Below are positions 3,106 through 49,537 of a DNA stretch of 64,000 nt, in pieces. The notes under the pieces are model-generated. The model was not told the origin of the DNA, ran no database searches, and saw only the letters and a list, made by a program, of their open reading frames with translations. Numbering within the stretch: position 1 is the first letter of the stretch; every line of letters begins with the position of its first letter. A program made the position numbers and the translations under genes. Origin of the DNA: Tequatrovirus BCH953P4; the sequence record OZ035789.1. One strand, given 5' to 3'.

Positions 3106-3324
3106 TTATGTTTTGCGACTAAATTGTTCATAATGCTGAATTACCTCTCTTAAACATTTGCATGTGAATGAAAACTTTTTAGCTACACCACATTCAAATA
3201 TATGTTCTCTTAAATCACGTGTATCAGTATATCCCATCTCAACAATAAAATGCCGTATTAGATTTTTATCTTTATCATTGAGAGAATTAAAATAATCAGA
3301 TTTTGAATTAATTTCCCTGGCCAA
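3106..3324 (-). CDS. Hypothetical protein (72 aa; track start is TTG)
   Basis: ORF track; arn-motA variable region. Confidence 0.4.
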   Translation of the reverse strand: MAREINSKSDYFNSLNDKDKNLIRHFIVEMGYTDTRDLREHIFECGVAKKFSFTCKCLREVIQHYEQFSRKT

Positions 3325-3604
3325 ATTGAATCACCTTCAGTTGACGTTTTAACTCTTTTATCATTTCTTCGTTCATCGCAATATAAAGATCGCGTAAAGC
3401 AGGTTTTAGCATTCCATTTACTGGAGAACTAAATGGACATATATAATCTTTTCCTACAAGCTTTTTGGTGAATTCCATATCACAGAACTTAAATCCCGGC
3501 TCATTGGTATAAATTCCCCAATTAGTTGACATCATTTTGTTAGCATATTCCAGTGCCTGGATTTGATTCATAATTCCATCAATTTGAAACTGTTTAATAT
3601 TCAT
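3308..3604 (-). CDS. Hypothetical protein (98 aa)
   Basis: ORF track; ATG start; TAATG overlap with upstream gene. Confidence 0.55.
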   Translation of the reverse strand: MNIKQFQIDGIMNQIQALEYANKMMSTNWGIYTNEPGFKFCDMEFTKKLVGKDYICPFSSPVNGMLKPALRDLYIAMNEEMIKELKRQLKVIQFGQGN

Positions 3605-4062
3605 TAGTAAAGGTCCTCAGAGTAAAGTTCTTTTTCACTACCACGTTCAATACGTACTTGTCCAGCGTAAGTTGCAATAATCATTGCTTCTTCACGTGTC
3701 CAATAATTACTATATTGGTCAATAAACCCTTGGTCATCATCACAAACTTGCTGAGTAACTAATTGAGGTTTAACTACATCTAAAACTTCTGCCATATCTT
3801 TAGAATAATGACGAGCACCTGGAATAACAAGAGTTCGTCCATCTTTTAATTTAAAACGGTTGGCTGCGCAAACAATTCGTCGTTGATACTTTTGGTTTTC
3901 ATCCCAGTACGCAGTCTGCCAACAGATTTCAGGAACTTCTTTCAGAATATCTTCTTCTGTGCATTTATAACCATGCGCTTTAAATTTTTGAACAAGACTC
4001 TCCGGAGTCTCACGAGATAAAAGCACATTCAGCATTTTTAAACGATTAATAAATGGGTTCAT
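3604..4062 (-). CDS. Hypothetical protein (152 aa)
   Basis: ORF track; ATG start. Confidence 0.55.
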
Positions 4063-30266: not shown

Positions 30267-30296
30267 ACTATACCATAGTCTTGTCAGCTTGTAAAC
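30267..30296 (-). promoter_or_regulatory. Early promoter upstream of dmd (-35 GTTTACA, 17 bp, -10 TGGTATAGT)
   Basis: Plus ACTATA-CCA (30267-30275) and TGTAAA (30290-30295). Confidence 0.6.
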
Positions 30297-31723
30297 TAAA
30301 ATTTTAATTCATTTGCCAAAGCATCTAACTGAGCTCGAGCTGATTCGTTTCTTTGATAGCGATTCTGTTCAGCCTGAATCTGTTGTGAACCTGCTACTTC
30401 GTTCACTTCAGTTGGAGTAGAATCTTGTTCAATTTCTACCCATTTCTGATTTCCCTTTTGAACACCCATCAAAAACTTATTCCATTTGTTCTTATCGCCA
30501 TATCGTGATTTGATTTGCTTAATGAGTTGTTGTTCAGCAGCTGCTAGCTCCTCGGTTTCAATGACCGCAAGCATAAAATCAGCTGTTGCTGGAAGACCAG
30601 CAGATTCTGCAATATCGCTCATGTTAACATCGGAAGAGTCCCAAGCTTGTTTACCAACCTGTGCTGCAGTCCAAAGAACAGTTTCGGTTTCAACAGCCAG
30701 AGCACGCAATTCCTCGGCAATAGCTTTAACAGTTGTGTAACTATTTTCTGAATAAACTCTAATGCGGCAAGATTTACAAATACCTAGATAGTCGACAATA
30801 ATGATTGTTGGAACAAAATTCTTCTTGAGCTTCAATTCGTTTAAAAGTGATCGAAATGTATTAGCGTCTGCTCCACCAGTAGGATACTGTTTAACGATTA
30901 AACGACCAAGGGTAGATTTCTCACGCCATTTTTCCATTTTTCCTTTATATTCAGCGTAAGAAATATGTCCATCATCAATATCGTCAAGAGAAACATCGAG
31001 CATGTTAGCATCAATACGTTTAGCACAGACTTCTTCTGCCATTTCCATGGAGATATAAAGAACGTTATGACCAAGCTGCAAATAATCTGCTGCTAATGAA
31101 CAAAGTCCTAATGATTTACCAACGTTAACACCAGCCATTAAAACGTTCAGTGTTCCAGTCTCAGCTCCGCCTTTAGTAATTTTGTTTAGAATTCTGAGTT
31201 TAAATGGAACCTTACGAGCTTTATTCATATAAGATAGCCAACGCGCTTCGTAGTCATCCATCCAATCATGACCAACGTAACTATCAAATGAAATAGATAA
31301 TGCCTGGCGCATGATGTCAGGAATAGCACCTACATCTGGCATTTTCTTATTTCGTTTTTCCGGAGGAAGCTCAGCATTAGTTTGAATTTCGATTATTTTA
31401 GACGTAGCATTAAACATCGCCCTTTGCTGAACATATTTTTCTGTTTCTTTTATTAACCAACTGTGGTCTTCCGGAGAATCAGCCAGTTTTGAAATAAGTG
31501 TTTTTACACCAGAATATTCTGTTTCAGTAAATGAACTATTTTCTAATGCAACATTTAACGCATTAATAGATGGAACGCTATGGTACTCATTAACATGAGA
31601 TTTAATTAATTTGAATGTATTTTTAGCTGGACCACTTTCAAAATATTCTGAATCCATATATGGCCAAACTTTTGAAAAATAAGCTTGATCAAATATGAGA
31701 TGAGAAAGAATAATTTCTACCAC
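30296..31723 (-). CDS. 41: Replicative DNA helicase gp41 (475 aa)
   Basis: ORF track; DnaB-like Walker motifs; T4 gp41 length; track start codon is GTG. Confidence 0.9.
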   Translation of the reverse strand: MVEIILSHLIFDQAYFSKVWPYMDSEYFESGPAKNTFKLIKSHVNEYHSVPSINALNVALENSSFTETEYSGVKTLISKLADSPEDHSWLIKETEKYVQQRAMFNATSKIIEIQTNAELPPEKRNKKMPDVGAIPDIMRQALSISFDSYVGHDWMDDYEARWLSYMNKARKVPFKLRILNKITKGGAETGTLNVLMAGVNVGKSLGLCSLAADYLQLGHNVLYISMEMAEEVCAKRIDANMLDVSLDDIDDGHISYAEYKGKMEKWREKSTLGRLIVKQYPTGGADANTFRSLLNELKLKKNFVPTIIIVDYLGICKSCRIRVYSENSYTTVKAIAEELRALAVETETVLWTAAQVGKQAWDSSDVNMSDIAESAGLPATADFMLAVIETEELAAAEQQLIKQIKSRYGDKNKWNKFLMGVQKGNQKWVEIEQDSTPTEVNEVAGSQQIQAEQNRYQRNESARAQLDALANELKF

Positions 31724-31732
31724 ACTTACTCC

Positions 31733-32077
31733 TTAAAAGAATTTAAATTTTTTCTTTGACCTTTTATTAAATGCATCTTGTAGTTGCATTGTAATACATT
31801 TTTCTACATGAGGAGCTAACTCAGCTTTTCTTTCTTGGTCAAGAACAGCAAAGTCCATTACGACTTTTCCATCAACCCAATCTAATTTTGTCACATACAC
31901 AATGTGTGTAGAACCATCTTCTAGTTTAATGACAATCTCCTGGATAACATTTTCCATAGCGGATTTAATTATCTTAAGAGACTCATTAAAAAGACGTTCT
32001 TTTCTTTCTTCTTCCCCCTCCGAAGAGGGGGATTCATCGATAATTTCTAGATCTAAATCTAAATCATCTTTACTCAT
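31733..32077 (-). CDS. 40: gp40-like acidic protein (114 aa from ATG at 32077)
   Basis: Position between 41 and uvsX; track start is GTG, trimmed to first ATG. Confidence 0.55.
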   Translation of the reverse strand: MSKDDLDLDLEIIDESPSSEGEEERKERLFNESLKIIKSAMENVIQEIVIKLEDGSTHIVYVTKLDWVDGKVVMDFAVLDQERKAELAPHVEKCITMQLQDAFNKRSKKKFKFF

Positions 32078-33251
32078 TAAATTCTTCCATATCACTTAAC
32101 TGCTCGAGGTCAGTTTCTAAATCAGCAGCTGATTTACTTTTACTTTCTGGAGATTTAAATTTTTCAACCTTTGAGTTAATCAATTCATCAACTTCCGCTT
32201 CAACAATTTCATTACTATCAATAGCACCTAACTGATAAGCACGTTTAATAGCATCTCGGAATGGTTGATGCTTAAATAAAGGACCCCAGAATGTAGTGCA
32301 GTTGGTATCTTTTGCACGCCAAGATTTTTCTTCGCGAATCATCTCACCGGTTTCTTCATCAAGAAATTCACGGGCATACCAGCCATTTTTAGGTTTTACT
32401 ACAAATCCTAATTCTAGAGCCATATCTAACAATCCAGAATAAGGATCGATACCACCGTCAAATTTAACATCAATAAAGAATTTACTTTTTTCTTTAACGG
32501 TACGAGATTTTTCTACATTTAGAACAAATTGATACCCCTGAAGATCAGAACCATCTTTAATTTGACGTTTACCGATAATGAATACAGTATCAGCCGAATA
32601 CATTACGCCTGTACCGCCTGTCATCACGGTTTTACTAAACATTTCAATTGTTTCAATTGTATGGTTAACCGCAACGCACGGAATATTTTTAATGCTAAAA
32701 TAAGGAGTAACAATACGGAATAATGACTTCAGTGATTTAGCACGAGTCATATCTGCCACAGATTTTTCATTCAAGGCATCTTCCGTTTCTTTCTTAGAAG
32801 CCATATTACCGATTGAGTCGATGAATACAATAACCTTTTCACCACGCTCAATAGTTTCAAGCTGATTCACCATATCAATTTTCAGCTGTTCAACTGATTG
32901 GATTGGCGTATGAATTACTCGTTCCGGGTCAACTCCCATGGATCGCAAATAAGCTGGAGTAATACCAAATTCGCTATCATAGAATAGACAAACCGCATCA
33001 GGATATTTGTTCAAATACGCCGCAACCATAGTCAAAGACATATTTGATTTAAAGTGTTTAGAAGGCCCTGCGAAAATAGTTAAACCAGACTGCATACCAC
33101 CATCAATCGCGCCAGAAATAGCAATATTAAGCATTGGGATTTTTGTACGGATTACATCCTTTTCATTAAAGAATTTAGATGTAGTCAGTTCAGCAGTCAT
33201 TTTAGAAGTGGAAGCTTTAATCAAACGGGATTTTAAATCTGCAATAGACAT
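32070..33251 (-). CDS. uvsX: RecA-like recombinase UvsX (393 aa)
   Basis: ORF track; Walker A GPSKHFKS; close to T4 UvsX. Confidence 0.92.
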   Translation of the reverse strand: MSIADLKSRLIKASTSKMTAELTTSKFFNEKDVIRTKIPMLNIAISGAIDGGMQSGLTIFAGPSKHFKSNMSLTMVAAYLNKYPDAVCLFYDSEFGITPAYLRSMGVDPERVIHTPIQSVEQLKIDMVNQLETIERGEKVIVFIDSIGNMASKKETEDALNEKSVADMTRAKSLKSLFRIVTPYFSIKNIPCVAVNHTIETIEMFSKTVMTGGTGVMYSADTVFIIGKRQIKDGSDLQGYQFVLNVEKSRTVKEKSKFFIDVKFDGGIDPYSGLLDMALELGFVVKPKNGWYAREFLDEETGEMIREEKSWRAKDTNCTTFWGPLFKHQPFRDAIKRAYQLGAIDSNEIVEAEVDELINSKVEKFKSPESKSKSAADLETDLEQLSDMEEFNE

Positions 33252-33328
33252 TCATTTTTTCCATAGGCATCATTATATTTTCCTCACTGGTTAAAGATAG
33301 AGTAATTATAACACAATAAATTTAGGCA

Positions 33329-34171
33329 TTAATCAACTGCTATTGGATGAATAGCATTAAACTTATGAAATGCTTCTGATTTTTCTTTACGCGAAACGCA
33401 CATGCGAAGAACCTTTAGTGGTTCATCTTCTTCACCCAACGATTTTCGTTTTTCAATATTAGAAGTTTTCCAACGAGCTTGCTCTGGAAACTCTCTATTG
33501 ATTTGCTCAAGCGCTCTATTATGTTTAGAATTACTACGAATTGAACTGCACCCGCCAGGAGCTTGTGCTTTTCCAGATACAACCAGATATTTGAACAAGG
33601 CCAAATGCGGATAACCTTGATTAATTAAATTGAGAAATGCATACATATCTTCGCATAAATCAATTTTTCCATATCCAATTTGTTCTGTCGTAAGTTTTCC
33701 AAGGTCATACCATGTATTCGTGAATCCATATGAATTTTCACGATAATTACCCCAAGATGAAGTAATTTTAAAAATTGGTAGACGAGCATGGCCATGATAA
33801 TACCCGCAATCCATGGCATCTTCAACATATTGAATCAATTCATAGAACTGTTCACGAGTTAATTGATTAATTTTATCTACACAACGACGATCATCTCTTT
33901 TTCGCATTGAACTCATACGAATAGTAGTATCATCGTCAATCATCCAGATTCGTTGACCTGCATACATATCAGTAATTGCTTTACGAGTACCGGCAATTCC
34001 GTTTACATCATCAGGAATAGTTATAATTTTAGCTCTAGACCCATAGGCATCATAATAAGCTTTTTCTTCATGTTCACGCACTACAATATGGGGTTCATAA
34101 TCAGTCGGAAACATATCAAGGGCAGAAACTGCCCCGACACGCTGATAGCTCGGAATTACGAATTGAATCAT
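33329..34171 (-). CDS. Putative DNA glycosyltransferase at the beta-gt locus (280 aa)
   Basis: ORF track; sits where T4 has beta-gt but is unlike T4 beta-gt; DDD motif; I suspect the T2/T6-type beta-glucosyl-HMC alpha-glucosyltransferase but cannot confirm. Confidence 0.5.
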   Translation of the reverse strand: MIQFVIPSYQRVGAVSALDMFPTDYEPHIVVREHEEKAYYDAYGSRAKIITIPDDVNGIAGTRKAITDMYAGQRIWMIDDDTTIRMSSMRKRDDRRCVDKINQLTREQFYELIQYVEDAMDCGYYHGHARLPIFKITSSWGNYRENSYGFTNTWYDLGKLTTEQIGYGKIDLCEDMYAFLNLINQGYPHLALFKYLVVSGKAQAPGGCSSIRSNSKHNRALEQINREFPEQARWKTSNIEKRKSLGEEDEPLKVLRMCVSRKEKSEAFHKFNAIHPIAVD

Positions 34172-34809
34172 TTAAGTGCCTTACATTTATCAAAATGGTA
34201 TCTTGTCATATTTGGCCCACGTCCTTTTAGTCCGCAATGCGGACATATTTTTTCTATCAAATTATGAGGTTTTCCTTTACGATTTTTAGACATCGTTTCT
34301 TTAATTATTTTAGCTTTTTCTACGCCAAAAATTTCTTCATAAGTTTTACCAGAATTTTCCTTGGCTCGATTTATAATTCCATATGCCTGCTCATTTTTAC
34401 CATACATTGGATTACCTTCGCCTTTCATTCTTTTAGAATGATCAGGACGCTTGATTCCACGAAAGGCATTTCCGCACTTATATCTTTCTTCTGGAGATAG
34501 TTTTTTACCGTACATTCCATTTAATTTGCCTGGAAAACTTCCTCCCCATGCTTCATTCTTTAAATTATATGAATCCGGACAATTAGCAGCATCTAAACAA
34601 GTTAAAATAATTTCTTCAACCTGTCTAAACATTGGTCCTTCATATAATATTTCTTTATTAAAGGATTTTATTCCATATTTCTTTTTAACATGTTGCCAAA
34701 CTACACCCGAACCATCATAATTCGGGTTGTGACCATCATGACTTCCTATATACCACTTTTTAGTTTTAGGATGTTTATACTTATAAACATGCGGCACATT
34801 TACTTCCAT
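34168..34809 (-). CDS. GIY-YIG homing endonuclease (213 aa) with C-terminal zinc finger
   Basis: ORF track; VYKYK...KWYIGSHDG motif; NUMOD-like repeats; CPHCGLKGRGPNMTRYHFDKC. Confidence 0.7.
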   Translation of the reverse strand: MEVNVPHVYKYKHPKTKKWYIGSHDGHNPNYDGSGVVWQHVKKKYGIKSFNKEILYEGPMFRQVEEIILTCLDAANCPDSYNLKNEAWGGSFPGKLNGMYGKKLSPEERYKCGNAFRGIKRPDHSKRMKGEGNPMYGKNEQAYGIINRAKENSGKTYEEIFGVEKAKIIKETMSKNRKGKPHNLIEKICPHCGLKGRGPNMTRYHFDKCKALK

Positions 34810-35540
34810 TTTCCAGTATAATCCTTTTTAGCAATATGAGTCTCACCGGTGTTCCACCAATGGTCAACTAAATAAAACTGATTTTCGTACACATGAAGAC
34901 TTCCAACGTTCCATATAATAGAACCTGCTTTATATTGCCGCGATGGGTCGCCTGCATTCAAATCAGATACTAATTTATCTAGTACGTATTTTTGCCAAGC
35001 ATAATCATTACGATAGCCTGCCCAGCAATCATTGCTTCTCATGCTAACAACCGCATTGACTTTCTTATCACGAATCAGGTACTGTACTGTATTAGTACAC
35101 ATGAAATCTGACATACCATCTTTATTGTAATCAAATTGCATGGATGGACGAGTATAAATCATGATACCACGTCGAGAATCAGGATTTTGACCAAGTTCAG
35201 CTAAACACATATCATACTGGGCATAGTTATCTTCTGACCAAATAGCCCAACCATAATTCGAGTTAATTTCGCCTTTAGAAGATGCTACTTGTTGCCAAAT
35301 CTTCGGTGTTTCACCCGGAATATCTTTAACAAACAAACTCTTAGATTTATACCATTCAAGTTCACGCTGAATGTATTCATCATTAAGAGCGCCAAAAATA
35401 AACGGTTCATCTGCTACAAATGATGCGCCAATAATTTCAATAGTTTTAACACCAGTTTTATCAACTACGAAATCTTTTTCCTTTAATGCAGTTCCCAAAT
35501 AAAAACGGATTTCTTCAACTGTCATAGAGTCATTAATCAT
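34800..35540 (-). CDS. 42: dCMP hydroxymethylase gp42 (246 aa)
   Basis: ORF track; T4 gp42 length and sequence. Confidence 0.92.
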   Translation of the reverse strand: MINDSMTVEEIRFYLGTALKEKDFVVDKTGVKTIEIIGASFVADEPFIFGALNDEYIQRELEWYKSKSLFVKDIPGETPKIWQQVASSKGEINSNYGWAIWSEDNYAQYDMCLAELGQNPDSRRGIMIYTRPSMQFDYNKDGMSDFMCTNTVQYLIRDKKVNAVVSMRSNDCWAGYRNDYAWQKYVLDKLVSDLNAGDPSRQYKAGSIIWNVGSLHVYENQFYLVDHWWNTGETHIAKKDYTGKWK

Positions 35541-35547
35541 TTAAACC

Positions 35548-35697
35548 TCAATTGATGCATTCATATTTAAATTGTAACAGTAATAAACCCCACCCTATGA
35601 TAAGAGTTGGAATCATAGCAGGAACTGTTACGCTATAGTATATACTTATTATAACCATCAAGATTAAAAGCAACACTGCTATAATTTTGCTTTTCAT
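35548..35697 (-). CDS. Small membrane peptide (49 aa)
   Basis: Hand translation MKSKIIAVLLLILMVIISIYYSVTV...; ATGA overlap with imm stop. Confidence 0.3.
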   Translation of the reverse strand: MKSKIIAVLLLILMVIISIYYSVTVPAMIPTLIIGWGLLLLQFKYECIN

Positions 35698-35945
35698 TCT
35701 TTCTCTCTGATGATAATTACCTGATTTGGCTGTGCAGACTTTTTAGTTTCACCAGCAATTGACCAAATAAATGTAATAAACCAACCAATAATTGACCAGT
35801 TAAACAGTAAAGATGTGAAAAAGATTCCTACTGTCGATTTTGACCCACGCATCAAGGCGATAAACCATGGAAGCATGTATATAATAATAGCCAACACGCC
35901 TGAAACTAAAACCATAAAAATTGAACCTGCTACTAAAGTTTCCAT
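35694..35945 (-). CDS. imm: Superinfection immunity protein Imm (83 aa)
   Basis: ORF track; two TM segments; T4 Imm length and sequence. Confidence 0.85.
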   Translation of the reverse strand: METLVAGSIFMVLVSGVLAIIIYMLPWFIALMRGSKSTVGIFFTSLLFNWSIIGWFITFIWSIAGETKKSAQPNQVIIIREKE

Positions 35946-36514: not shown

Positions 36515-39211
36515 TCAGCCAAACAGGAAGTCTAACGAAGCTTTTTCTTCATAGTCCATACCAGCCGATTCACACATACCCGCAAGCGGTTTAACAAACG
36601 ATTTTTGGAACAAAGTTGAGTAGTCAATCCAAGATAGTACATCAGAACGAATTTCTTTTGGAAGTTCTGTACCCGACGGCCAAGCAATGCACTTGTCGCC
36701 AAATGGATTTCCTTCACGTAATGGAAGAACCATTACCTTATTTCCATCCAAAATTGGAGCTACACCTAGACCGCTAACAGCTCGACGATAAGTTAGCACA
36801 CCACGAATATGGAACGGGCATTTAAATCCTGGCCAACCTTTATCATCATATTTCGCTATATCGTTCGCAGTTTTTACTTCAGCAATAACTTTATAGTCAA
36901 GTTGACGATATTCTTTCTCGAAGTTTTTGTAATATTCTTGGACAGACTCTTCACCTTCCTGAAGAATACGACGAATACTTTCTTCGAGAGCTTCTTGCAC
37001 TGCTTTTGGTGTTGAACTCTGCTGAGTTTCCATACCCATGATTTTTAGATGTGGTTCAGCAAATCGCTTATCTTCCATATCATAAACGTTCAGAGCATAA
37101 CGCTTTTTCGCTTTCCAAAATCCACCAACGCCCTTTGAACCAAGTGGAGGGCAAGAAATAGCTTCACGGTCCATATGCATCAGATGCTCGCGGTTATTCA
37201 TATAATCACATAACTCGCGATATGCAACATCAATCATAGGTTCCATCTTTTTCTTACCGAACTGATTCATGAATTCAACTAAATCGTTCTGCTCTTTGAA
37301 TCGGTCAAGACCTACTTTTTCAATAACTTTATCTACGCAAACATATACCGAATCAGTATCACCTGCTGCAATGAAATCTTCGCCATTAGTTCCGCATACT
37401 TTATTCAGATATTCATTAATTTTACGAGCAATCCACTGAATACCAACTTGGCCGAAAATTGTGATAGCAGTAGCATTTCGCAAATCATAGTAACGGAAAT
37501 GAATATTACCAAGAGCACCATAAAGACTGTTAATAAGAATTTTACGGTTCAGCTGATTTGTGTTAGCAAGTGTAGCTGCTTTTTCACATTCTTCGATCAG
37601 ACTATTAAGAACAGATTCAGTGTAATTCGATAATTCATTTAAGAAATCATCACTGAACTTAACATATCGTTCAACTTCTGGTTTAGTTGAACAAGACCCT
37701 GCGCCTTTCATAATAATCTTTTTAATAGCTTCGGCATTCATTTCTTCAGCGAACATTTTCTTTTTCCAGTCTTTACGCTGGAAAAATACTTTAGCGATTT
37801 CCTTTGGAATGATACCTTCTTGATGCTTATCATACATCCATCCATTCGGAGAACAAGAATATTCATCACTCGGTTTAGGAGCTGTTCCTGCAATATATTC
37901 ATGAATTGGATGAACTTTAAACTGCCCACGAATAGTCTCAGGACTAATGTTAACCTGACGAATAATGCTAGGATACAGAGACGTCAAGTCAAAACTCATA
38001 ATATATCGACGAGCAATTGGTTTAGGTTCAAACACAAATGCACCCGGAAAACTTTGTTTAACGTGCGAACCCTGTTGAGGAATAACCTTATGTTCACCTT
38101 TCAATGAGTTAAAAATAATAGCATCCCAAGTTTTAATAGGACTCATTACGCCAGAAAAAGGCATTTTAGCATAATAAGACATACTTAAAACTAGATCGAT
38201 AAACCCGCGAATTTTATCAATTGCTTGAACTGATTCTACGTCAATGATGTTATAACTAATGTATCGTTGATGATTAGTTTCACGAAGTTTATTAATAGGA
38301 CCGTCGTATGGTAATTTACCTTTTTTGGTTTCATGTTGAGCAACTGATTCCAAAGAGAATGACGGCAAATTAGTAAAAGCGAATTTCTTGTACAAATCTA
38401 AATAATCAAGAATAGATACACCATCAATAGAATAAATTTCTTTGCTACCGTACATATTTTGAATTAGTTTAGATTTTACTCGACCGATTGGAGAGAAGCG
38501 TTTCATACTACGTTCACCGAGAACCATTTTAACACGATTCATGATATACGGAACGTCAAATCCCTCAATATTCCAACCAGTAAAAATAGCAGGTCGTTTC
38601 TGTTCCCAAAGATTGATATATTCCATGAGCATATCACGCTCGTTATCGAATGGCATATAAATTACTCGGTCAAGAATTTCTTGAGGAACTTCATCACCAC
38701 CTTCACAGTCAAGCTTAGCAGCTAACTTTGCATCCCATTTTGATACTGAACCGTACATTGAATTCAAAAGGTCGAAAACATAAAAACGATCGTCAATTGA
38801 ATCGTAATGAGTGATAGCATCAATTTCATATTCAGCTTTCATTGGGTCAGGAAATTTATCACCAGTAACCTCAATGTCACAGTTAGCTACGCGAACAAAT
38901 TTTCGGTCATAAACAATTTCTGAACCATATGTATCACTAATGTAAGCGAGTTTAAAATCGTTCATACCGAGAGCTTCGAGACCGATGTCTTCCATTCGCT
39001 TCATCCAGTCTCGTGCATCTTTCATTGATGGAAATTTTTGAGGAGCGCAATTTTTACCATAGATGTCTTTGTACTTTGACTCTTCCTTACAATGCCTAAA
39101 CATAGTCGGAAGATATTCTACTTCACGGGTACGTTCCTTTCCGTTTTCATCAATATAACGTTCAACAATGTTATTTCCGACTGTTTCGATAGAGATATAA
39201 AATTCTTTCAT
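36515..39211 (-). CDS. 43: DNA polymerase gp43 (898 aa)
   Basis: ORF track; family B exonuclease and polymerase motifs; T4 gp43 length. Confidence 0.95.
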   Translation of the reverse strand: MKEFYISIETVGNNIVERYIDENGKERTREVEYLPTMFRHCKEESKYKDIYGKNCAPQKFPSMKDARDWMKRMEDIGLEALGMNDFKLAYISDTYGSEIVYDRKFVRVANCDIEVTGDKFPDPMKAEYEIDAITHYDSIDDRFYVFDLLNSMYGSVSKWDAKLAAKLDCEGGDEVPQEILDRVIYMPFDNERDMLMEYINLWEQKRPAIFTGWNIEGFDVPYIMNRVKMVLGERSMKRFSPIGRVKSKLIQNMYGSKEIYSIDGVSILDYLDLYKKFAFTNLPSFSLESVAQHETKKGKLPYDGPINKLRETNHQRYISYNIIDVESVQAIDKIRGFIDLVLSMSYYAKMPFSGVMSPIKTWDAIIFNSLKGEHKVIPQQGSHVKQSFPGAFVFEPKPIARRYIMSFDLTSLYPSIIRQVNISPETIRGQFKVHPIHEYIAGTAPKPSDEYSCSPNGWMYDKHQEGIIPKEIAKVFFQRKDWKKKMFAEEMNAEAIKKIIMKGAGSCSTKPEVERYVKFSDDFLNELSNYTESVLNSLIEECEKAATLANTNQLNRKILINSLYGALGNIHFRYYDLRNATAITIFGQVGIQWIARKINEYLNKVCGTNGEDFIAAGDTDSVYVCVDKVIEKVGLDRFKEQNDLVEFMNQFGKKKMEPMIDVAYRELCDYMNNREHLMHMDREAISCPPLGSKGVGGFWKAKKRYALNVYDMEDKRFAEPHLKIMGMETQQSSTPKAVQEALEESIRRILQEGEESVQEYYKNFEKEYRQLDYKVIAEVKTANDIAKYDDKGWPGFKCPFHIRGVLTYRRAVSGLGVAPILDGNKVMVLPLREGNPFGDKCIAWPSGTELPKEIRSDVLSWIDYSTLFQKSFVKPLAGMCESAGMDYEEKASLDFLFG

Positions 39212-41235: not shown

Positions 41236-41922
41236 TTAAAAATCGTGGGTAGAATCAGCTTCAAGAGCTACCACATAATTCGCGTGTTCACCTTCAAATT
41301 TAGCAGCACCTTGTTTACCTTTTGCCCAGAGCAGAAGTTTATAATTTCCTGGTTGCATTTTCATATTTGCCATATTGATAATGAAATTAAATGTATTTTC
41401 ACCATCATAATCACCAAGAGTCAAAGAATATTTAACACGGGTCAGAGCAGAATCTTCTACTTTATTAAAACCGTTAATTACGATTTTACCTTCTTTTACT
41501 GTGATAGCAATTGTATCAATCTGCAGACCGCGAGATACACGCAACAGCTGTTGAAGGTCTTCAGCTTTAATTTCGGTAACAACAGATGCTACCGGGAATG
41601 GAATTGGTTTATTAGGAGCAACTACTGTACTCGGATCGGCTGCTGGCCAAAAAATTGTTGAGCGAGCATCAGCAATTTTAATATTTCCATCTTCTGATTG
41701 CGAAATTTCTGCATCATCATTAACTAGAGACAGAATACCGAGAAAACCGTTCAAATCGTAAATTGCTACATCAAAATCAATAACGTCAGAAATATTTGCT
41801 TCCGCATAAGTTGTACCATTAACTGCGCGAGTCATAATAAATTGACCGGATTTAAGCATAATACCGGAGTTAATAGTAGCGAAATTTTTCAAAATATTCA
41901 GTGTGTCTTTAGATAATTTCAT
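41236..41922 (-). CDS. 45: Sliding clamp gp45 (228 aa)
   Basis: ORF track; T4 gp45 length and sequence. Confidence 0.9.
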   Translation of the reverse strand: MKLSKDTLNILKNFATINSGIMLKSGQFIMTRAVNGTTYAEANISDVIDFDVAIYDLNGFLGILSLVNDDAEISQSEDGNIKIADARSTIFWPAADPSTVVAPNKPIPFPVASVVTEIKAEDLQQLLRVSRGLQIDTIAITVKEGKIVINGFNKVEDSALTRVKYSLTLGDYDGENTFNFIINMANMKMQPGNYKLLLWAKGKQGAAKFEGEHANYVVALEADSTHDF

Positions 41923-42806
41923 TTCAATTTCCTATTTACATAATAGTTAGACCAGGACCGTACAGCACCCTGATAAGATTCGTCGTTAAACCCATTAGCT
42001 ACTGCAATTTTACGAAATTTATTATAACTCGGTTTTCCGTAAGCATGCCATAAAGATTTTAATTCATCTTCATGTTCAATCCAAGTTCCTCTAGCTTTAG
42101 ATTTTCTAAATTTTGATTTGAATTCCGGTGAATTATTTCTAACAGTTGCTTGAATTGAAGCCCTCTGTCTTCTTTCAGCATTATTCCATAACTCTTTTTG
42201 AGATTTAGAAATTTTTGATTTTACACTTTCTGAATTCATTATATCACTAAACTTTTTAGCATAACTACAATCAAGATATTTCAATTTCATCTTATTTGAA
42301 AGTTTAAGCTTTTTCTCATCGGTCCAGTGATTCTTCATTGAATTAGATATTTTGTATTTTACGTCAGAACTATGTTTGTAACCTTTACGAATACCAACAT
42401 AATCGGGCGTAATTTCAGATTGCGAAAGCTTTACAATTTTTCCAGTTAAAACATTTTTATATGTTCCATATCCTTTAGCGCCAATTAAAGTATTTTCATC
42501 TGCGTATGCTTTATTAAAATATTTTATATTACTTTTTGCTTTAACTTTTAATTGAAAAAATCTTTCCAATTTTCTTGGATCTAATATAGTTTCAGCTAAA
42601 ATTTTGACGGTATATTTAGTGGTTTTAATAAGCTCAAAATATTCATCGCTATAACTCGATGACACGCTTCCAGTATAAATCTTTCCAGCTGAATCAATTA
42701 TATTTGTTCCATCGAAAATTGCGTCAATTTTCGAACCTATATAATAACATGGAAAAATATTTTTAGCTTCCCGCTCTGGAAAGCTAATAAGATATACTAA
42801 ATTCAT
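41919..42806 (-). CDS. GIY-YIG-like (Seg-type) homing endonuclease candidate (295 aa)
   Basis: ORF track; LVYLISF...CYYIGSK motif; basic repeat-rich C-terminus; 4-nt overlaps with rpbA and 45. Confidence 0.55.
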
Positions 42807-43444: not shown

Positions 43445-44161
43445 ATGAATTATAAACTAATTTATGAAAAGTTAATCTCTAATGCTAAATCTCGAAAACT
43501 TGATTGCTATACTGAATCTCATCACATTATACCACGCTGTTTAAATGGCAGCGATGATGCTTCAAACTTAGTAGATTTAACACCAGAAGAGCACTATGTA
43601 GCTCATCAACTTTTAGTAAAAATTTATCCTTCTGAACCAAAATTAGTATATGCTGCTAACATGATGACAGTTTCCACGAAATACGCTAAACGCAACAATA
43701 AAACTTTCGGTTGGATTCGTCGTAAACTCTGGGAAATAGAAAAGAACAAAGAATTCTCCCAGGAGACACGAAAGAAAATGTCTGATGCAGTAGCTAATAA
43801 AGCAAGACTAACTTGTCCTCATTGCGGTAAGTCTGGATTAAGCGGGAATATGAATCGTTGGCATTTTGATAACTGCCCAAATCACCCTAATCCTAAAGTT
43901 AGACCACCAATGTCTAAAGAACACAGAAATAATATCTCAAACGGGCTTAAAGCAATCGTTCTTGAAGAAACATCTTGCGAATTCTGCGGAATGATAGGCA
44001 AGAAATGCGTTATCGCAGCGCATAGAAATTTCTGCAAGAAAAATCCAAATGGACGCAAGAAAACTGAAAAGACTGGTACTTGCGTCCATTGTGGTAAAGT
44101 TACCACTTTCGGAAATTTATCAAGATGGCATAATGATAACTGTAAATATAAACCTAGCTAA
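43445..44161 (+). CDS. HNH homing endonuclease with three zinc-finger repeats (238 aa)
   Basis: ORF track; HHIIPRC...N...H HNH motif; repeats CPHCGKSG...RWHFDNC; opposite strand to all neighbours. Confidence 0.8.
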   Translation: MNYKLIYEKLISNAKSRKLDCYTESHHIIPRCLNGSDDASNLVDLTPEEHYVAHQLLVKIYPSEPKLVYAANMMTVSTKYAKRNNKTFGWIRRKLWEIEKNKEFSQETRKKMSDAVANKARLTCPHCGKSGLSGNMNRWHFDNCPNHPNPKVRPPMSKEHRNNISNGLKAIVLEETSCEFCGMIGKKCVIAAHRNFCKKNPNGRKKTEKTGTCVHCGKVTTFGNLSRWHNDNCKYKPS

Positions 44162-45842
44162 TCTTAGCTAAACTAAATCTACCAACTTTTTCCATCTGAA
44201 TATGCTGACCATATTCTTGTGGGTCATGGTCTTTATGCGAAATTATGAAGAAGTTGGTATCCTTCAAACCATCTAAAATTTTAGCTACATTTTTAATACC
44301 TTCAGCATCAAATGCACCGTCATACACTTCATCAAGAAATAAACAACTTATTTTAACACCTGAAACTTTTTCAGCAATATCACGCCAAGTAAATAAAAGA
44401 GCAATATCAATTCGTGCTTTTTCACCTTGACTGAATGAAGCATAACTAAAATCTTCACGACCACGGGATTTAATTGTCTCATTAAATTCTTCATCTAATG
44501 TAAACACATAATCCGCTTCCATTATTTTAAGATAATGGTTAATCTGCTTATTAAATAATGGAATGTACTTTTTAATAATAGCACCTTTAATACCAGAATC
44601 TTTGAGCATATCAGTCAAAATTCCTCGGTGGTATTTTTCCATTACTAAATTAGTTTTTGTCTTAACAATTTTATCAAGTTCTTCTTGAAGCAGTGCTATT
44701 TCATCAGCATGGTCAATAAACTCAGAAGATGCTTTTTCTATAGCCGCTTTAACCTTTTTAGCTTTATCTACTGCTGCGATCAAAGATTGCTTTTTATTGC
44801 GAATATCATTTGCCAACGACTGTTGGGTTTTAATATTATCTCGGTATTCATCAACAAGAACTTTTAAATTATCACGATGTGTTGAAAGCTGTTCAAACGA
44901 ATGCGTACATTCAGAAACTTTATCTTTAATTTTAGAAACAACTTTATCACCGGAACTCAATTGTGACAAACAGGTTGGACATAATCCACCTTCGTGATAC
45001 ATATTAATGACTTTATTATACGAGTCAATTTTTGATTTAATTAAAAATGCTTCTTGACCGATTTTATTAAATGCATCAGTTGGGTCTTCGTCTAAAACAA
45101 TATTAACTAATCTTTCATTAGCTTCTTCTATTTCCGATTTTAGCGTTCTAGCTTCTTTTGCCAAATCATCATACATATTTTGCAGACGAGTAAGGTTGTC
45201 ACCCGTTAATTTTTTCTGGCGTTCAACGTTATCATTATATATTTTAATTTGTTGGATAATACTATCTTTTTTAACATCAAGCACTTGGTTCTGCGAATTT
45301 AATTCGCGTATTAGTGCTTTATTAAGCTTATCCATTTCAGCTAATGTTCCTACCTCAAGCAGGTCTTCCACAAGCTTTCTTCGCGCAGGGGTCGACAAAC
45401 CCATGAAAGGGGTATACCCTGCTGTACCAAGGACAACAATCTGCTTGAAACTGGCATATGACATTCCGATAAGCTGTTCAAATTCTGCTTGGAAATCTTT
45501 ACTGCTGGCAGATTCATTAAGACGTGTACCGTTAACGGTGATTTCGAAAACGTTTGGTTTTTGTCCTCTTTTGATATAGTACTTTTTCTCATCATATTCC
45601 ATCCACAGTTCAACTAAAAGTTCTTTCTTATTTGTGCTGTTTATTAATTGACCTTTCTTTACATCACGAAATGGCTTGCCAAAAAGCCCAAACGTGATGG
45701 CTTCTAGCATAGTAGACTTACCACCGCCATTTCGTCCAGTAATAAGAGTTTTTTGAACCTTATCTAATTGAATGTCAATCCCATTTTGACCAACTGACAT
45801 TATATTTTTATATTTTACTCTATTAAGTTTAAAATTCTTCAC
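44154..45842 (-). CDS. 46: Recombination endonuclease subunit gp46 (562 aa), SbcC/Rad50-like
   Basis: ORF track; Walker A GRNGGGKST and long coiled coil. Confidence 0.88.
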   Translation of the reverse strand: MKNFKLNRVKYKNIMSVGQNGIDIQLDKVQKTLITGRNGGGKSTMLEAITFGLFGKPFRDVKKGQLINSTNKKELLVELWMEYDEKKYYIKRGQKPNVFEITVNGTRLNESASSKDFQAEFEQLIGMSYASFKQIVVLGTAGYTPFMGLSTPARRKLVEDLLEVGTLAEMDKLNKALIRELNSQNQVLDVKKDSIIQQIKIYNDNVERQKKLTGDNLTRLQNMYDDLAKEARTLKSEIEEANERLVNIVLDEDPTDAFNKIGQEAFLIKSKIDSYNKVINMYHEGGLCPTCLSQLSSGDKVVSKIKDKVSECTHSFEQLSTHRDNLKVLVDEYRDNIKTQQSLANDIRNKKQSLIAAVDKAKKVKAAIEKASSEFIDHADEIALLQEELDKIVKTKTNLVMEKYHRGILTDMLKDSGIKGAIIKKYIPLFNKQINHYLKIMEADYVFTLDEEFNETIKSRGREDFSYASFSQGEKARIDIALLFTWRDIAEKVSGVKISCLFLDEVYDGAFDAEGIKNVAKILDGLKDTNFFIISHKDHDPQEYGQHIQMEKVGRFSLAKIS

Positions 45843-47465: not shown

Positions 47466-47483
47466 AAAGGGCCGAAGCCCTTT
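47466..47483 (-). other. Stem-loop overlapping the alpha-gt stop codon
   Basis: AAAGGGC-CGAA-GCCCTTT. Confidence 0.4.
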
Positions 47484-48684
47484 ATTTTGTAATAATGTCA
47501 AACTGTTCTTTAAAGCAGAAGCTTGAATCTTGATGCTGATACAAAAATTCATATGCTTTTTCTCGCTCACGGTCATAAAGAGCTCGGTCAGATGACAGTT
47601 CTTTAATACGCTCGAATGTTGATTCCATGTCATTTTCATCAAACCAAACGATACCGCTATCATGCGAGGTCAAAGGAGTATTATCAACACGGAATTTTAA
47701 ATTTTCGCCAGTAGATTTCCAAAATACCGGAATTGTTCCACATGCACCAAGCTCGAGGTGAGTATATTCTAAAGAGCGCTGTAGATATTTTTTATCCAAC
47801 TTACTCAACTGATAACCAAATCCGGATTTACTCATACGTTCAAGCATTTCGCTATTTACATAACGATCGAGAATTTGCGTTGGTAAATTAGGAGCAATTT
47901 TAATTTGGTCTACTTGATGAAGACGATAATACTCGTATGGAATTCCTTTTTCTTTAATAGGAATGAACGCTGGAGAACGTTCCAGACCTTCCATAATAGT
48001 ACTTAGTCCTGCAGGTTTAAGATGTTTTTCGTGAAAATCAAACATCTGATAAAAACCTTTCCATGTAGTCGTACGACCAATCCAACGGTTGATATTCATG
48101 TTAATTTCAGAAACATCTTTCCAGTAGGTTGATCGAACCTTCGCAATATCCATAGGAGGCTGAAAGTTGTATACGGTCGGTGCTTCTTCAATATCATCAA
48201 ACAGAGAAACTGTTTCTGGATACCATTCTTTCATCAGAACTTTATTAAAATCACCATTATCAGAATGGCTAAAAATAACATCAGCTCGACGAACAGTTTC
48301 TTCTAATCCCAAATTTCGACGCAAAGAAAGAGAAGAATGGTCATGTTGATAAACTACAACACGAACCGAAGGTTTAATGTTATCAATAATTTTTTTATAG
48401 TTATTAATAGTGTCTTCTTCAACTGAAGTAGCAGGAACGGAATTGATAATTAGAATATCACAATCATTTACCAGCTTAAGTGTTTTATCGTATTCTTTTG
48501 CCAATAAAACCGGAATTGAAAATGATTTATAATCATGCGCGCAATTACGGGTAAATGATTTATCTTTAGCATAAACCAAAGTTACTTCATGACCATTTTT
48601 AATAAACCAATCACGCTGCTCAAGAGAAAATTTAGTTACACCGCAACCTTCAAGACCCCGAGCCATAAAAATGCAAATACGCAT
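47482..48684 (-). CDS. a-gt: DNA alpha-glucosyltransferase (400 aa from ATG at 48684)
   Basis: Sequence MRICIFMARGLEGCGVTKF... T4 alpha-gt-like; track N-terminal extension rejected. Confidence 0.88.
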   Translation of the reverse strand: MRICIFMARGLEGCGVTKFSLEQRDWFIKNGHEVTLVYAKDKSFTRNCAHDYKSFSIPVLLAKEYDKTLKLVNDCDILIINSVPATSVEEDTINNYKKIIDNIKPSVRVVVYQHDHSSLSLRRNLGLEETVRRADVIFSHSDNGDFNKVLMKEWYPETVSLFDDIEEAPTVYNFQPPMDIAKVRSTYWKDVSEINMNINRWIGRTTTWKGFYQMFDFHEKHLKPAGLSTIMEGLERSPAFIPIKEKGIPYEYYRLHQVDQIKIAPNLPTQILDRYVNSEMLERMSKSGFGYQLSKLDKKYLQRSLEYTHLELGACGTIPVFWKSTGENLKFRVDNTPLTSHDSGIVWFDENDMESTFERIKELSSDRALYDREREKAYEFLYQHQDSSFCFKEQFDIITK

Positions 48685-48742: not shown

Positions 48743-49537
48743 CTACGAATAGGCCCAAACATATCCATAAGCAATTTTGCTTTTTCCAGATATACACTTT
48801 TTAATATTAGACATGCATCCTTTAACGGATACAGCTGCGTCTTTAATTTTAGGAAATACTCGTAATAATTTTCCAGTAGTATCATATTGAAATACTGGCA
48901 CATTTCTTTTCTGAGTTATCCCACGTTTAGATTTAGACATTTTTTGTTTAGTTGCATTAGACATCCTAGAGGGCTTTCCTATGTTATCAGAATAATAATA
49001 TTTCCATTGAAATCCTCCAGCGGTTTTCCTTTTCCCATCTACACATTGTTTAATTGAACTTGAACAGCTATATGACATATCTTCTGCAGCATCTGTAATA
49101 CATCTATATTTGCGAATAAAATTTCCATTTAAATCATATTGATAAATTGGTTTTCCAGCATTTCGTCTAGCGTTAGACATGTATTTTTTATTATCATCAT
49201 CTTTCCAGAACTCTTTCATGCCTTCCGATATTGAGGAAGATACAGCTGTTTTAATCCATCCATACATTTTATTATTTAGTCTTGTTCCGTCAGAACTATA
49301 ACACATCATACGAATAGCTAAAGCCAATTTAGGAAGTCTATAAATTTTAAATAATAATAAATGCGCGGTAAAATGTTCTTCTGGTGTCAAAAGAACTAAA
49401 TTAGTTTTATCATCTGTACCACCCATACATCTAGGAATTATATGATGAGTTTCAGTATAGTATGTCAAAAGACTTTTATCATTGCCTCTGTTTAGTCCTT
49501 TTTCGATCAGTAAATTATATATGTTTAAATAATTCAT
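48743..49537 (-). CDS. HNH homing endonuclease (264 aa), MobB-like position
   Basis: ORF track; HHIIPRC...N...H motif; NUMOD-like C-terminal repeats. Confidence 0.75.
   Translation of the reverse strand: MNYLNIYNLLIEKGLNRGNDKSLLTYYTETHHIIPRCMGGTDDKTNLVLLTPEEHFTAHLLLFKIYRLPKLALAIRMMCYSSDGTRLNNKMYGWIKTAVSSSISEGMKEFWKDDDNKKYMSNARRNAGKPIYQYDLNGNFIRKYRCITDAAEDMSYSCSSSIKQCVDGKRKTAGGFQWKYYYSDNIGKPSRMSNATKQKMSKSKRGITQKRNVPVFQYDTTGKLLRVFPKIKDAAVSVKGCMSNIKKCISGKSKIAYGYVWAYS

Follow-up and report, generated by a model that had tools for sequence, protein, structure and literature searches.

What occupies the interval between uvsX and gene 42 in Tequatrovirus BCH953P4, and which DNA does the homing endonuclease gene lodged there act upon? 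The DNA that we analyzed, called the window throughout, is a 64-kb segment (64,000 nucleotides, nt) of this T-even genome (sequence record OZ035789.1), and all statements on gene content made below refer to the window. Nearly all of its genes lie on the minus strand. According to the list of open reading frames (ORFs) and to Pfam matches, the order around the locus is gene 41, gene 40, uvsX, an ORF of 280 amino acids (aa), an ORF of 213 aa, gene 42, the imm-region genes and gp43 (Table 1). The two ORFs between uvsX and gene 42 lie exactly where an initial annotation had placed them, and both are real genes, because 471 phage records hold the first at a protein identity of at least 90% (tblastn) and 76 hold the second at a DNA identity of 97.5-100%. 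The first is ba-gt, encoding a second-sugar transferase of the T2/T6 type, and the second encodes a predicted homing endonuclease. Taken as a whole, the locus is very probably an ordinary T2/T6-type arrangement of uvsX, ba-gt and gene 42, in which an optional selfish gene separates the latter two. The endonuclease gene is linked to a distinctive allele of the 3' part of gene 42, which probably points to its target.

The 213-aa protein matches PHROG 314, 'homing endonuclease' (E=8.1e-30), as well as T4 SegA (BLASTP, E=2e-8), and its residues 7-138 show 34.7% identity to SegC, the best, albeit partial, tblastn match offered by T4. In a four-way alignment, its GIY-like (VYKY), YIG (WYIGS), YxGSG (YDGSG), Glu and Asn (YNLKN) positions align with those of SegA and SegC, in agreement with the initial annotation, which had taken this ORF for a GIY-YIG-type homing endonuclease gene. 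Homology, motif alignment and presence/absence polymorphism thus show it to be, as far as can be predicted from sequence, a free-standing Seg-type GIY-YIG homing endonuclease and an uncharacterized member of the Seg family. The gene is present as a single copy in each of its 76 records, always between 42 and ba-gt; these carriers correspond to about 16% of the ba-gt records, and T2, T6 and RB3 are devoid of it. Alignment to T2 revealed a clean insertion of ~630 bp, at the end of which the AAATGA stop/start overlap with ba-gt is restored: the endonuclease stop codon overlaps the ba-gt start (ATGA), and the first 10 nt of the endonuclease gene are shared with the end of gene 42. Klebsiella Jiaodavirus orthologues (65-69% identical) are inserted at the same 42/ba-gt junction. 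GenBank labels for the gene range from 'hypothetical' over 'putative homing endonuclease' and 'site-specific intron-like DNA endonuclease' to 'SegD' (one record). T4 SegD lies between genes 23 and 24. A literature search, with most subscription journals outside its coverage, retrieved no paper on the 213-aa endonuclease or on a link to gene 42, and this link appears to be new.

Relative to T2, the window is ~97-99% identical over ba-gt and most of gene 42, whereas the last 250 bp of gene 42 are far more diverged. Mismatches to T2 per 50 nt of gene 42 amount to 6, 1, 0, 0, 2, 2, 3, 1, 7, 4, 19, 4, 3, 15 and 10, compared with at most 3 per 50 nt in ba-gt. A 251-bp probe from the 3' part of gene 42 identified 81 records at 95% identity or above and 420 at 80-90%. 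With a probe spanning the endonuclease/gene-42 boundary, all 76 carriers were found to have the linked allele, each with at least 95.6% identity over the whole probe, while 399 non-carriers fell into the 80-90% range. Comparison of carrier and non-carrier gene 42 sequences yielded 33 fixed differences, 17 of them within the 27 nt of the patch termed P1, where an even spread would have placed about 1.2; in ba-gt, the same comparison gave zero fixed differences.

Two further patches (P2 and P3; Table 1) stand out in gene 42, the sequence between patches being T2-like, and the last ~40 nt of the gene, beside the insertion, also differ between carriers and non-carriers. At P1, carriers read ATG AGA AGC AAT GAT TGC TGG GCA GGC TAT (MRSND-CWAGY) and endonuclease-free phages ATG CGC TCA AAT GAC GTG GTC TTC GGA TTC (MRSND-VVFGF), which converts the protein segment MRSND-VVFGF-RN to MRSND-CWAGY-RN and includes synonymous recoding of Arg, Ser, Asp and Gly (e.g., AGA AGC vs CGC TCA). 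At P3, TAC GAA AAT CAG (Y-ENQ) in carriers corresponds to TAT TCT CGT CAT (Y-SRH) in endonuclease-free phages, changing HVY-SRH-FY to HVY-ENQ-FY. P2 is weaker than P1 and P3, and its comparison with Jiaodavirus was prevented by an indel. In the Jiaodavirus carrier that we examined (ValerieMcCarty03), CWAGY and QNQ are present on a Jiaodavirus backbone, as opposed to VVFGY and ERH in non-carriers of that genus (Mineola, others). Two T4-like lineages without the endonuclease, one of a Salmonella CGG4-1-like phage (L020) and another designated L026, natively have CWAGY/E(N/K)Q together with the AGA AGC codons.

Two endonuclease-free records with the presumed immune allele were given little weight. 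ERS-1 (PP337211.1) is an UNVERIFIED record with frameshifts in 42 and ba-gt, in which P1-P3 are followed by a T2-type version of the last 40 nt of gene 42. In BYEP02 (OR757454.1), a 77-bp duplication combines both allele types, with carrier-type sequence on the 5' side and T2-type sequence on the 3' side, and breaks gene 42. Recombination, loss of the endonuclease gene, or chimeric assembly of mixed lysates may account for the two sequences.

Free-standing endonucleases of T4 are known to cut a conserved neighboring gene and to be inherited together with flanking markers, as reported for SegA/uvsX, SegF/56, SegG/32 and MobE/nrdB (PMC2988022, Table 1). Going by the allele pattern described above, we consider it fairly probable that the 213-aa endonuclease cuts gene 42 of the T2/T4 type, at P1, P3 or both or in their vicinity, in genomes devoid of the endonuclease, and that the CWAGY/ENQ patches confer immunity. 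In a mixed infection, the enzyme would cleave gene 42 in its 3' part, 80-240 bp from the insertion point, with the VVFG(F/Y)-coding P1, the SRH-coding P3 or both marking the site or its vicinity, and recombinational repair from the carrier genome would copy the endonuclease gene along with the flanking gene-42 patches. The carrier would escape cleavage because its gene 42 has the alternative CWAGY/ENQ form, which some other T4-like genera possess natively and which was probably gained by co-conversion from a naturally resistant lineage. Selection against carriers with a cleavable gene 42 is suggested because P1, 230 bp from the insertion, has stayed in 76/76 carriers despite intervening recombination, because the recoding includes synonymous changes and because the pattern recurs in a second genus. 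A more comprehensive reading would be that an active Seg-family endonuclease targets the active-site-coding 3' region of the essential gene 42, that gene conversion with another T4-like lineage as the source brought in immunity by CWAGY plus ENQ, that at least two genera (Tequatrovirus and Jiaodavirus) have been invaded, and that the element could drive replacement of beta-gt, the beta-glucosyltransferase gene of T4, by ba-gt; for this combination of statements we see the balance as even. If true, this would add a further case of a selfish nuclease aimed at conserved catalytic-site coding sequence. The immunity allele, altering five or more residues beside the active site of an essential enzyme, would then represent a natural experiment on alternative functional dCMP hydroxymethylase sequences.

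Several points weigh against gene 42 as the present target. The 76/0 association was derived from BLAST identity bands and not from inspected alignments, and the fixed differences are based on 6 carrier and 7 non-carrier Tequatrovirus sequences, 13 only. The inspected records in which the linked allele occurs without the endonuclease gene (ERS-1, BYEP02) are poor in quality. CWAGY and a Q-ending P3 triplet occur together in every full-length gp42 that carries CWAGY, endonuclease-free genera included; because the patches co-vary in these genera too, one of them (P1 or P3) may be coupled to the other within the protein instead of serving nuclease recognition. P3 is a candidate for a second target or for such a change in the protein that accompanies P1, the notion of structural coupling leaning on this co-variation and on the thymidylate-synthase fold. 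As to the enzyme itself, the Pfam GIY-YIG model gave no match to the 213-aa protein at E<=1, NUMOD3 (E=0.003) remained below its cut-off, TIGR01453 scored 21 bits versus a cut-off of 56, and a PDB sequence search with the protein returned no match. Scans detected neither a dedicated promoter nor a strong ribosome-binding site for the endonuclease gene: sigma-70-like sites predicted in promoter/terminator scans of positions 33100-35700 did not exceed those in shuffled sequences, and no exact T4 late promoter TATAAATA and no MotA box were present upstream of the gene. Finally, the patches could in part be a hitch-hiking remnant of one ancestral co-conversion tract.

Taken further, the latter idea leads to the view that the endonuclease gene is inactive or domesticated and that the patches are merely left over from one ancient co-conversion tract and play no part in immunity today. 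The failure of the catalytic-domain Pfam model and the missing promoter and ribosome-binding signals would be in line with such a relic, as would the split ORFs in some records (REP2/REP3, PYps5T), the retention of only the last ~35 endonuclease codons in Jiaodavirus GF, and the natural occurrence of CWAGY/ENQ in endonuclease-free genera, where it need not have arisen as immunity. We nevertheless regard a relic as unlikely, though clearly worth keeping in mind: an intact ORF is shared, at 97.5-100% identity, by 76 records that span several host genera, and the sequence between the patches has reverted to a T2-like or Jiaodavirus-like backbone, yet P1, ~230 bp away, is linked to the gene in 76/76 carriers and in a second genus. 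Alternatively, the endonuclease may be active but cut elsewhere, either at the 42/ba-gt junction of endonuclease-free phages or at a site in ba-gt or uvsX. The insertion coincides with the AAATGA junction between 42 and ba-gt, and cleavage near the insertion point is known for some homing enzymes; moreover, T4 SegA, residing at the same locus, cuts uvsX (PMC2988022), and the divergence of the last ~40 nt of gene 42 leaves room for a target that overlaps the junction. A target in ba-gt, however, is difficult to reconcile with a gene lacking fixed differences and showing no more than 3 mismatches per 50 nt, versus up to 19 in the 3' end of gene 42, and we judge cleavage outside the gene-42 patches to be improbable.

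Among known systems, the element is close to SegA, SegC, SegF and SegG of T4. The 213-aa protein has a putative N-terminal GIY-YIG-type module that aligns with SegA and SegC (28-35% identity), and the genes have in common insertion between conserved genes, optional presence in close relatives and dense polymorphism in an adjacent conserved gene (PMC2988022). Differences concern the insertion site (42/ba-gt), the presumed target (gene 42) and the C-terminal half, where the predicted enzyme has a CxxC...HxxxC motif that is absent from SegA and SegC. A further counterpart is the orthologue in Klebsiella Jiaodavirus phages (e.g., ValerieMcCarty03, WKK95809.1), which shares 65-69% identity over its full length, the position at the 42/ba-gt junction and the CWAGY plus xNQ patches, but belongs to another genus with a different backbone. 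In Klebsiella phage vB_KpnM_GF (MK421971.1, ~1990-2100), a C-terminal remnant is fused to a truncated gene 42: gene 42 ends prematurely near codon 214, where the last ~35 endonuclease codons follow, the remnant being 80% identical to endonuclease residues 181-210, with the CWAGY patch kept. This may represent a decaying copy of the element that damages an essential gene, or an assembly problem in what is a 'partial genome' record.

The initial annotation had further proposed that a mobile element marks the boundary of a swapped glycosyltransferase cassette. Its position at that boundary was substantiated, but a link to the swap was not, as T2, T6 and RB3 have ba-gt without the endonuclease gene and the molecular signature resides in gene 42 rather than in the glycosyltransferase gene. 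T4 has its GIY-YIG gene segA on the other side of beta-gt, and segA is also found beside ba-gt in about nine records, while about 11 records have beta-gt without segA. We therefore rejected the endonuclease gene as a marker or cause of the beta-gt/ba-gt exchange: ba-gt occurs without it in T2, T6 and RB3, segA occurs with both cassettes, and beta-gt occurs without segA. The 213-aa endonuclease gene was found only together with ba-gt (76/76), but this co-occurrence says little because ba-gt is the majority state. Since T4 gene 42 has the presumed sensitive patches, a cross could in principle drag the endonuclease gene and ba-gt into a T4-type genome, although this is speculative; repair would then have to extend as far as uvsX and include both the endonuclease gene and ba-gt. 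In one of the records with segA beside ba-gt, that of Escherichia phage 215Ecol030PP (PP328843.1, 23673-25813), ba-gt is flanked by two GIY-YIG homing endonuclease genes: a T4-type segA towards uvsX and the 213-aa endonuclease gene, 100% identical, towards gene 42.

Table 1. Features of the uvsX-42 locus and related genes in the window (positions refer to the 64-kb segment)
Feature	Position	Strand	Basis or remarks
gene 41	30296-31723		
uvsX, other flank of the locus	32070-33251	-	Pfam T4_UVSX_C, E=4.7e-39
ba-gt, beta-glucosyl-HMC-alpha-glucosyltransferase (TAGT family, predicted GT-A fold), 280 aa, ATG start	33329-34171	-	
DDD (DxD-type) motif, ba-gt residues 79-81	33929-33937	-	alignment of 9 homologues
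Seg-like GIY-YIG free-standing homing endonuclease gene (predicted), 213 aa, ATG start	34168-34809	-	PHROG 314; SegA/SegC alignment
gene 42, dCMP hydroxymethylase (makes hmdCMP)	34800-35540	-	Pfam Thymidylat_synt, E=1.3e-14; 3' quarter of the endonuclease-linked type
P3, gene 42 nt 654-663	34878-34887	-	7 fixed differences in 10 nt
P2, gene 42 nt 594-603	34938-34947	-	4 fixed differences; GDPSRQ here, GDSTRQ in endonuclease-free phages
P1, gene 42 nt 502-528	35013-35039	-	17 fixed differences; candidate recognition/cleavage site, presumed immune form
DNA polymerase gp43	36515-39211		
a-gt, DNA alpha-glucosyltransferase, 400 aa from ATG	47482-48684	-	Pfam AGT PF11440, E=3.9e-237; PHROG 2888, E=3e-223

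Turning to the glucosyltransferase, the 280-aa protein matches PHROG 842, 'beta-glucosyl-HMC-alpha-glucosyltransferase' (E=6.9e-89), and Pfam PF20691, the TET-associated glycosyltransferase (TAGT) family, with 38.3 bits (cut-off 27.5) over model positions 2-205 of 205. Direct comparison gave 277/280 identical residues for the T2 enzyme (98.9%) and 275/280 for that of T6 (98.2%), and the RB3 protein is 100% identical (tblastn), showing at the sequence level that the protein is a beta-glucosyl-HMC-alpha-glucosyltransferase essentially identical to the T2/T6 enzymes. D79, D80 and D81 are invariant in 9/9 aligned homologues, down to 32% identity, and presumably form the metal and UDP-glucose binding site, by analogy with GT-A enzymes generally. 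An AlphaFold2 model built from nine homologues (pLDDT, the predicted local distance difference test, of 72; pTM, the predicted template modeling score, of 0.75) adopts a predicted GT-A fold, with the DDD motif in its high-confidence N-terminal part. A PDB sequence search with the protein found no meaningful relative, and NCBIfam has no model for ba-gt or a-gt. Several statements of the initial annotation were thereby corroborated: the DxD-like motif at residues 79-81, the suspected T2/T6-type second-sugar transferase, for which the comparison with T2/T6 glucosyltransferases that it had proposed gave near-identity, and a GT-A fold, as predicted in the structure modeling that it had likewise proposed. 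It had also described the enzyme as unrelated to the 351-aa beta-gt product that T4 indeed encodes at this position, which agrees with the 15% identity obtained in a forced global alignment of the two, with a GT-A instead of a GT-B fold, and with the lack of a Pfam match of the 280-aa protein to the T4 b-gt family (PF09198) at E<=1.

The T2/T6 gene is also listed as 'ggt' (UniProt Q06717/Q06718; PF20691; glucosyl-DNA beta-glucosyltransferase) and was reportedly first cloned by Winkler and Rueger in 1993. It resembles the gene studied here in length (280 aa), in position between uvsX and 42, in its partner genes a-gt and 42, in the DDD motif and in the GT-A fold; the differences are 3-5 substitutions and the endonuclease gene, which separates ba-gt from 42 here, whereas the two abut in T2/T6. 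The 280-aa length of the T2 protein (Q06717) is documented (PMC6024577). T4 beta-gt (b-gt, PF09198, PDB 1JG7) shares with ba-gt the slot between uvsX and 42, the use of UDP-glucose and the modification of hydroxymethylcytosine (hmC) in DNA (PMC13216743), but it is unrelated in sequence, has a GT-B fold (PMC13216743), acts on free hmC instead of alpha-glucosyl-hmC, and is rare (about 27-28 versus 471 records). The spacer between uvsX and ba-gt measures 77 nt in the window and lacks segA, which T4 carries there.

Two side observations concern the ba-gt coding sequence. A GC-rich hairpin (GGGGCAG-TTT-CTGCCCT) is encoded within codons 13-18 (window 34119-34135, minus strand) and is also present in T2 and, in altered form, in Jiaodavirus (GGGGCAGTAACTGCCC); it could be an RNA structure that acts on ba-gt translation, or a mere reflection of the coding sequence. 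In the T6 record MH550421.1 (locus 3138-3980, minus), ba-gt has a TAG at codon 10 (SY*RVGAV) and is annotated from Met20 (261 aa). T6 being the classical high-gentiobiosyl phage, this TAG may be a stock-specific amber mutation or a sequencing error, or a downstream start may be used.

The initial annotation had also expected a hydroxymethylcytosine glycosylation pattern different from that of T4. The window encodes gp42 (93% identical to T2 gp42), a-gt and ba-gt, with no beta-gt-like ORF at the locus and no beta-gt elsewhere in the 64 kb. The a-gt product has 367/400 residues in common with T4 a-gt, which corresponds to the T2/RB type (PMC6024577, table). By established T-even biochemistry, gp42 would make hydroxymethyl-dCMP (hmdCMP), which would be incorporated during replication; a-gt would then add alpha-glucose to part of the hmC in DNA, and ba-gt, an inverting DxD enzyme using UDP-glucose, would attach a beta-1,6-linked glucose to alpha-glucosyl-hmC, giving alpha-gentiobiosyl-hmC. 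We thus infer, by analogy with this biochemistry and with published liquid chromatography-mass spectrometry of sister phages, that virion DNA contains hmC, alpha-glucosyl-hmC and gentiobiosyl-hmC, but no beta-glucosyl-hmC. In Tequatroviruses with a-GT and TAGT but without beta-GT, high-performance liquid chromatography coupled to mass spectrometry (HPLC/MS) indeed gave 5-hmdC, alpha-glucosyl-mdC and alpha-gentiobiosyl-mdC, and no beta-glucosyl-mdC, with two ratio classes among these phages (PMC13390438). Gentiobiosyl-hmC accounts for 5% of hmC in T2 and for 72% in T6 (PMC6024577). The sequence does not discriminate between a T2-like and a T6-like level of the second glucose, because the T2 and T6 enzymes are 98% identical.

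Might the enzyme instead use a sugar other than glucose, or act on hmC itself in the manner of T4 beta-gt? In other phages, TAGT homologues exist either by themselves or alongside beta-GT, and the definition of their specificity is incomplete (PMC13216743, discussion); in addition, the gentiobiosyl content of T2 and T6 is 14-fold apart despite near-identical enzymes (PMC6024577). Given the near-identity to the T2, T6 and RB3 enzymes, the presence in the window of a-gt, which makes the substrate, and the HPLC/MS results for sister Tequatroviruses with the same gene pair, we nonetheless consider such a deviating activity highly improbable. The type of sugar on hmC decides which host defenses see the phage, among them McrBC, GmrSD/BrxU, Brig1-type glycosylases and CRISPR. 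Assignment of the a-gt plus ba-gt (gentiobiosyl) type is accordingly useful for host-range prediction and phage therapy, although as such it is routine annotation.

In addition to the 471 records mentioned above, ba-gt homologues at 60-80% identity were found in a further ~200 records of Klebsiella, Enterobacter and Salmonella phages. A probe comprising T4 segA and the beta-gt 3' end matched 37 records, about 27-28 of them via the beta-gt part and mostly T4 laboratory stocks. The presence of ba-gt is therefore the normal state for Tequatrovirus, with T4 as the outlier. In line with this, a survey from 2026 described a-GT plus TAGT as the common pair and found a-GT plus beta-GT in 6/753 genomes; it also assigned a GT-A fold to T6 TAGT and placed TAGT as sister to GT2 (PMC13216743). 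The glycosyltransferase part of our analysis is already known, as synteny, fold and chemistry are covered by papers from 2018 and 2026 (PMC6024577, PMC13390438, PMC13216743).

Further homing endonuclease genes or candidates are present in the window. A 264-aa HNH/NUMOD1 homing endonuclease (48743-49537, minus strand), 98.9% identical to T4 MobB, is encoded directly upstream of a-gt, as in T4, while T6 has no MobB-like gene at this position; each glucosyltransferase gene of the phage (ba-gt and a-gt) thus adjoins a homing endonuclease gene. A 238-aa ORF (43445-44161, plus strand), oriented opposite to its neighbors, matches PHROG 655 'homing endonuclease' (E=8.6e-69) and, weakly, HNH. It is located just before gene 46 (44154-45842), and a counterpart between 45.2 and 46 is missing from T4 and T6. 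A 295-aa ORF (41919-42806, minus strand) directly upstream of gene 45, at the site of the 129-aa rpbA of T4, showed only a sub-threshold Pfam match, to DUF7132 (E=0.009).

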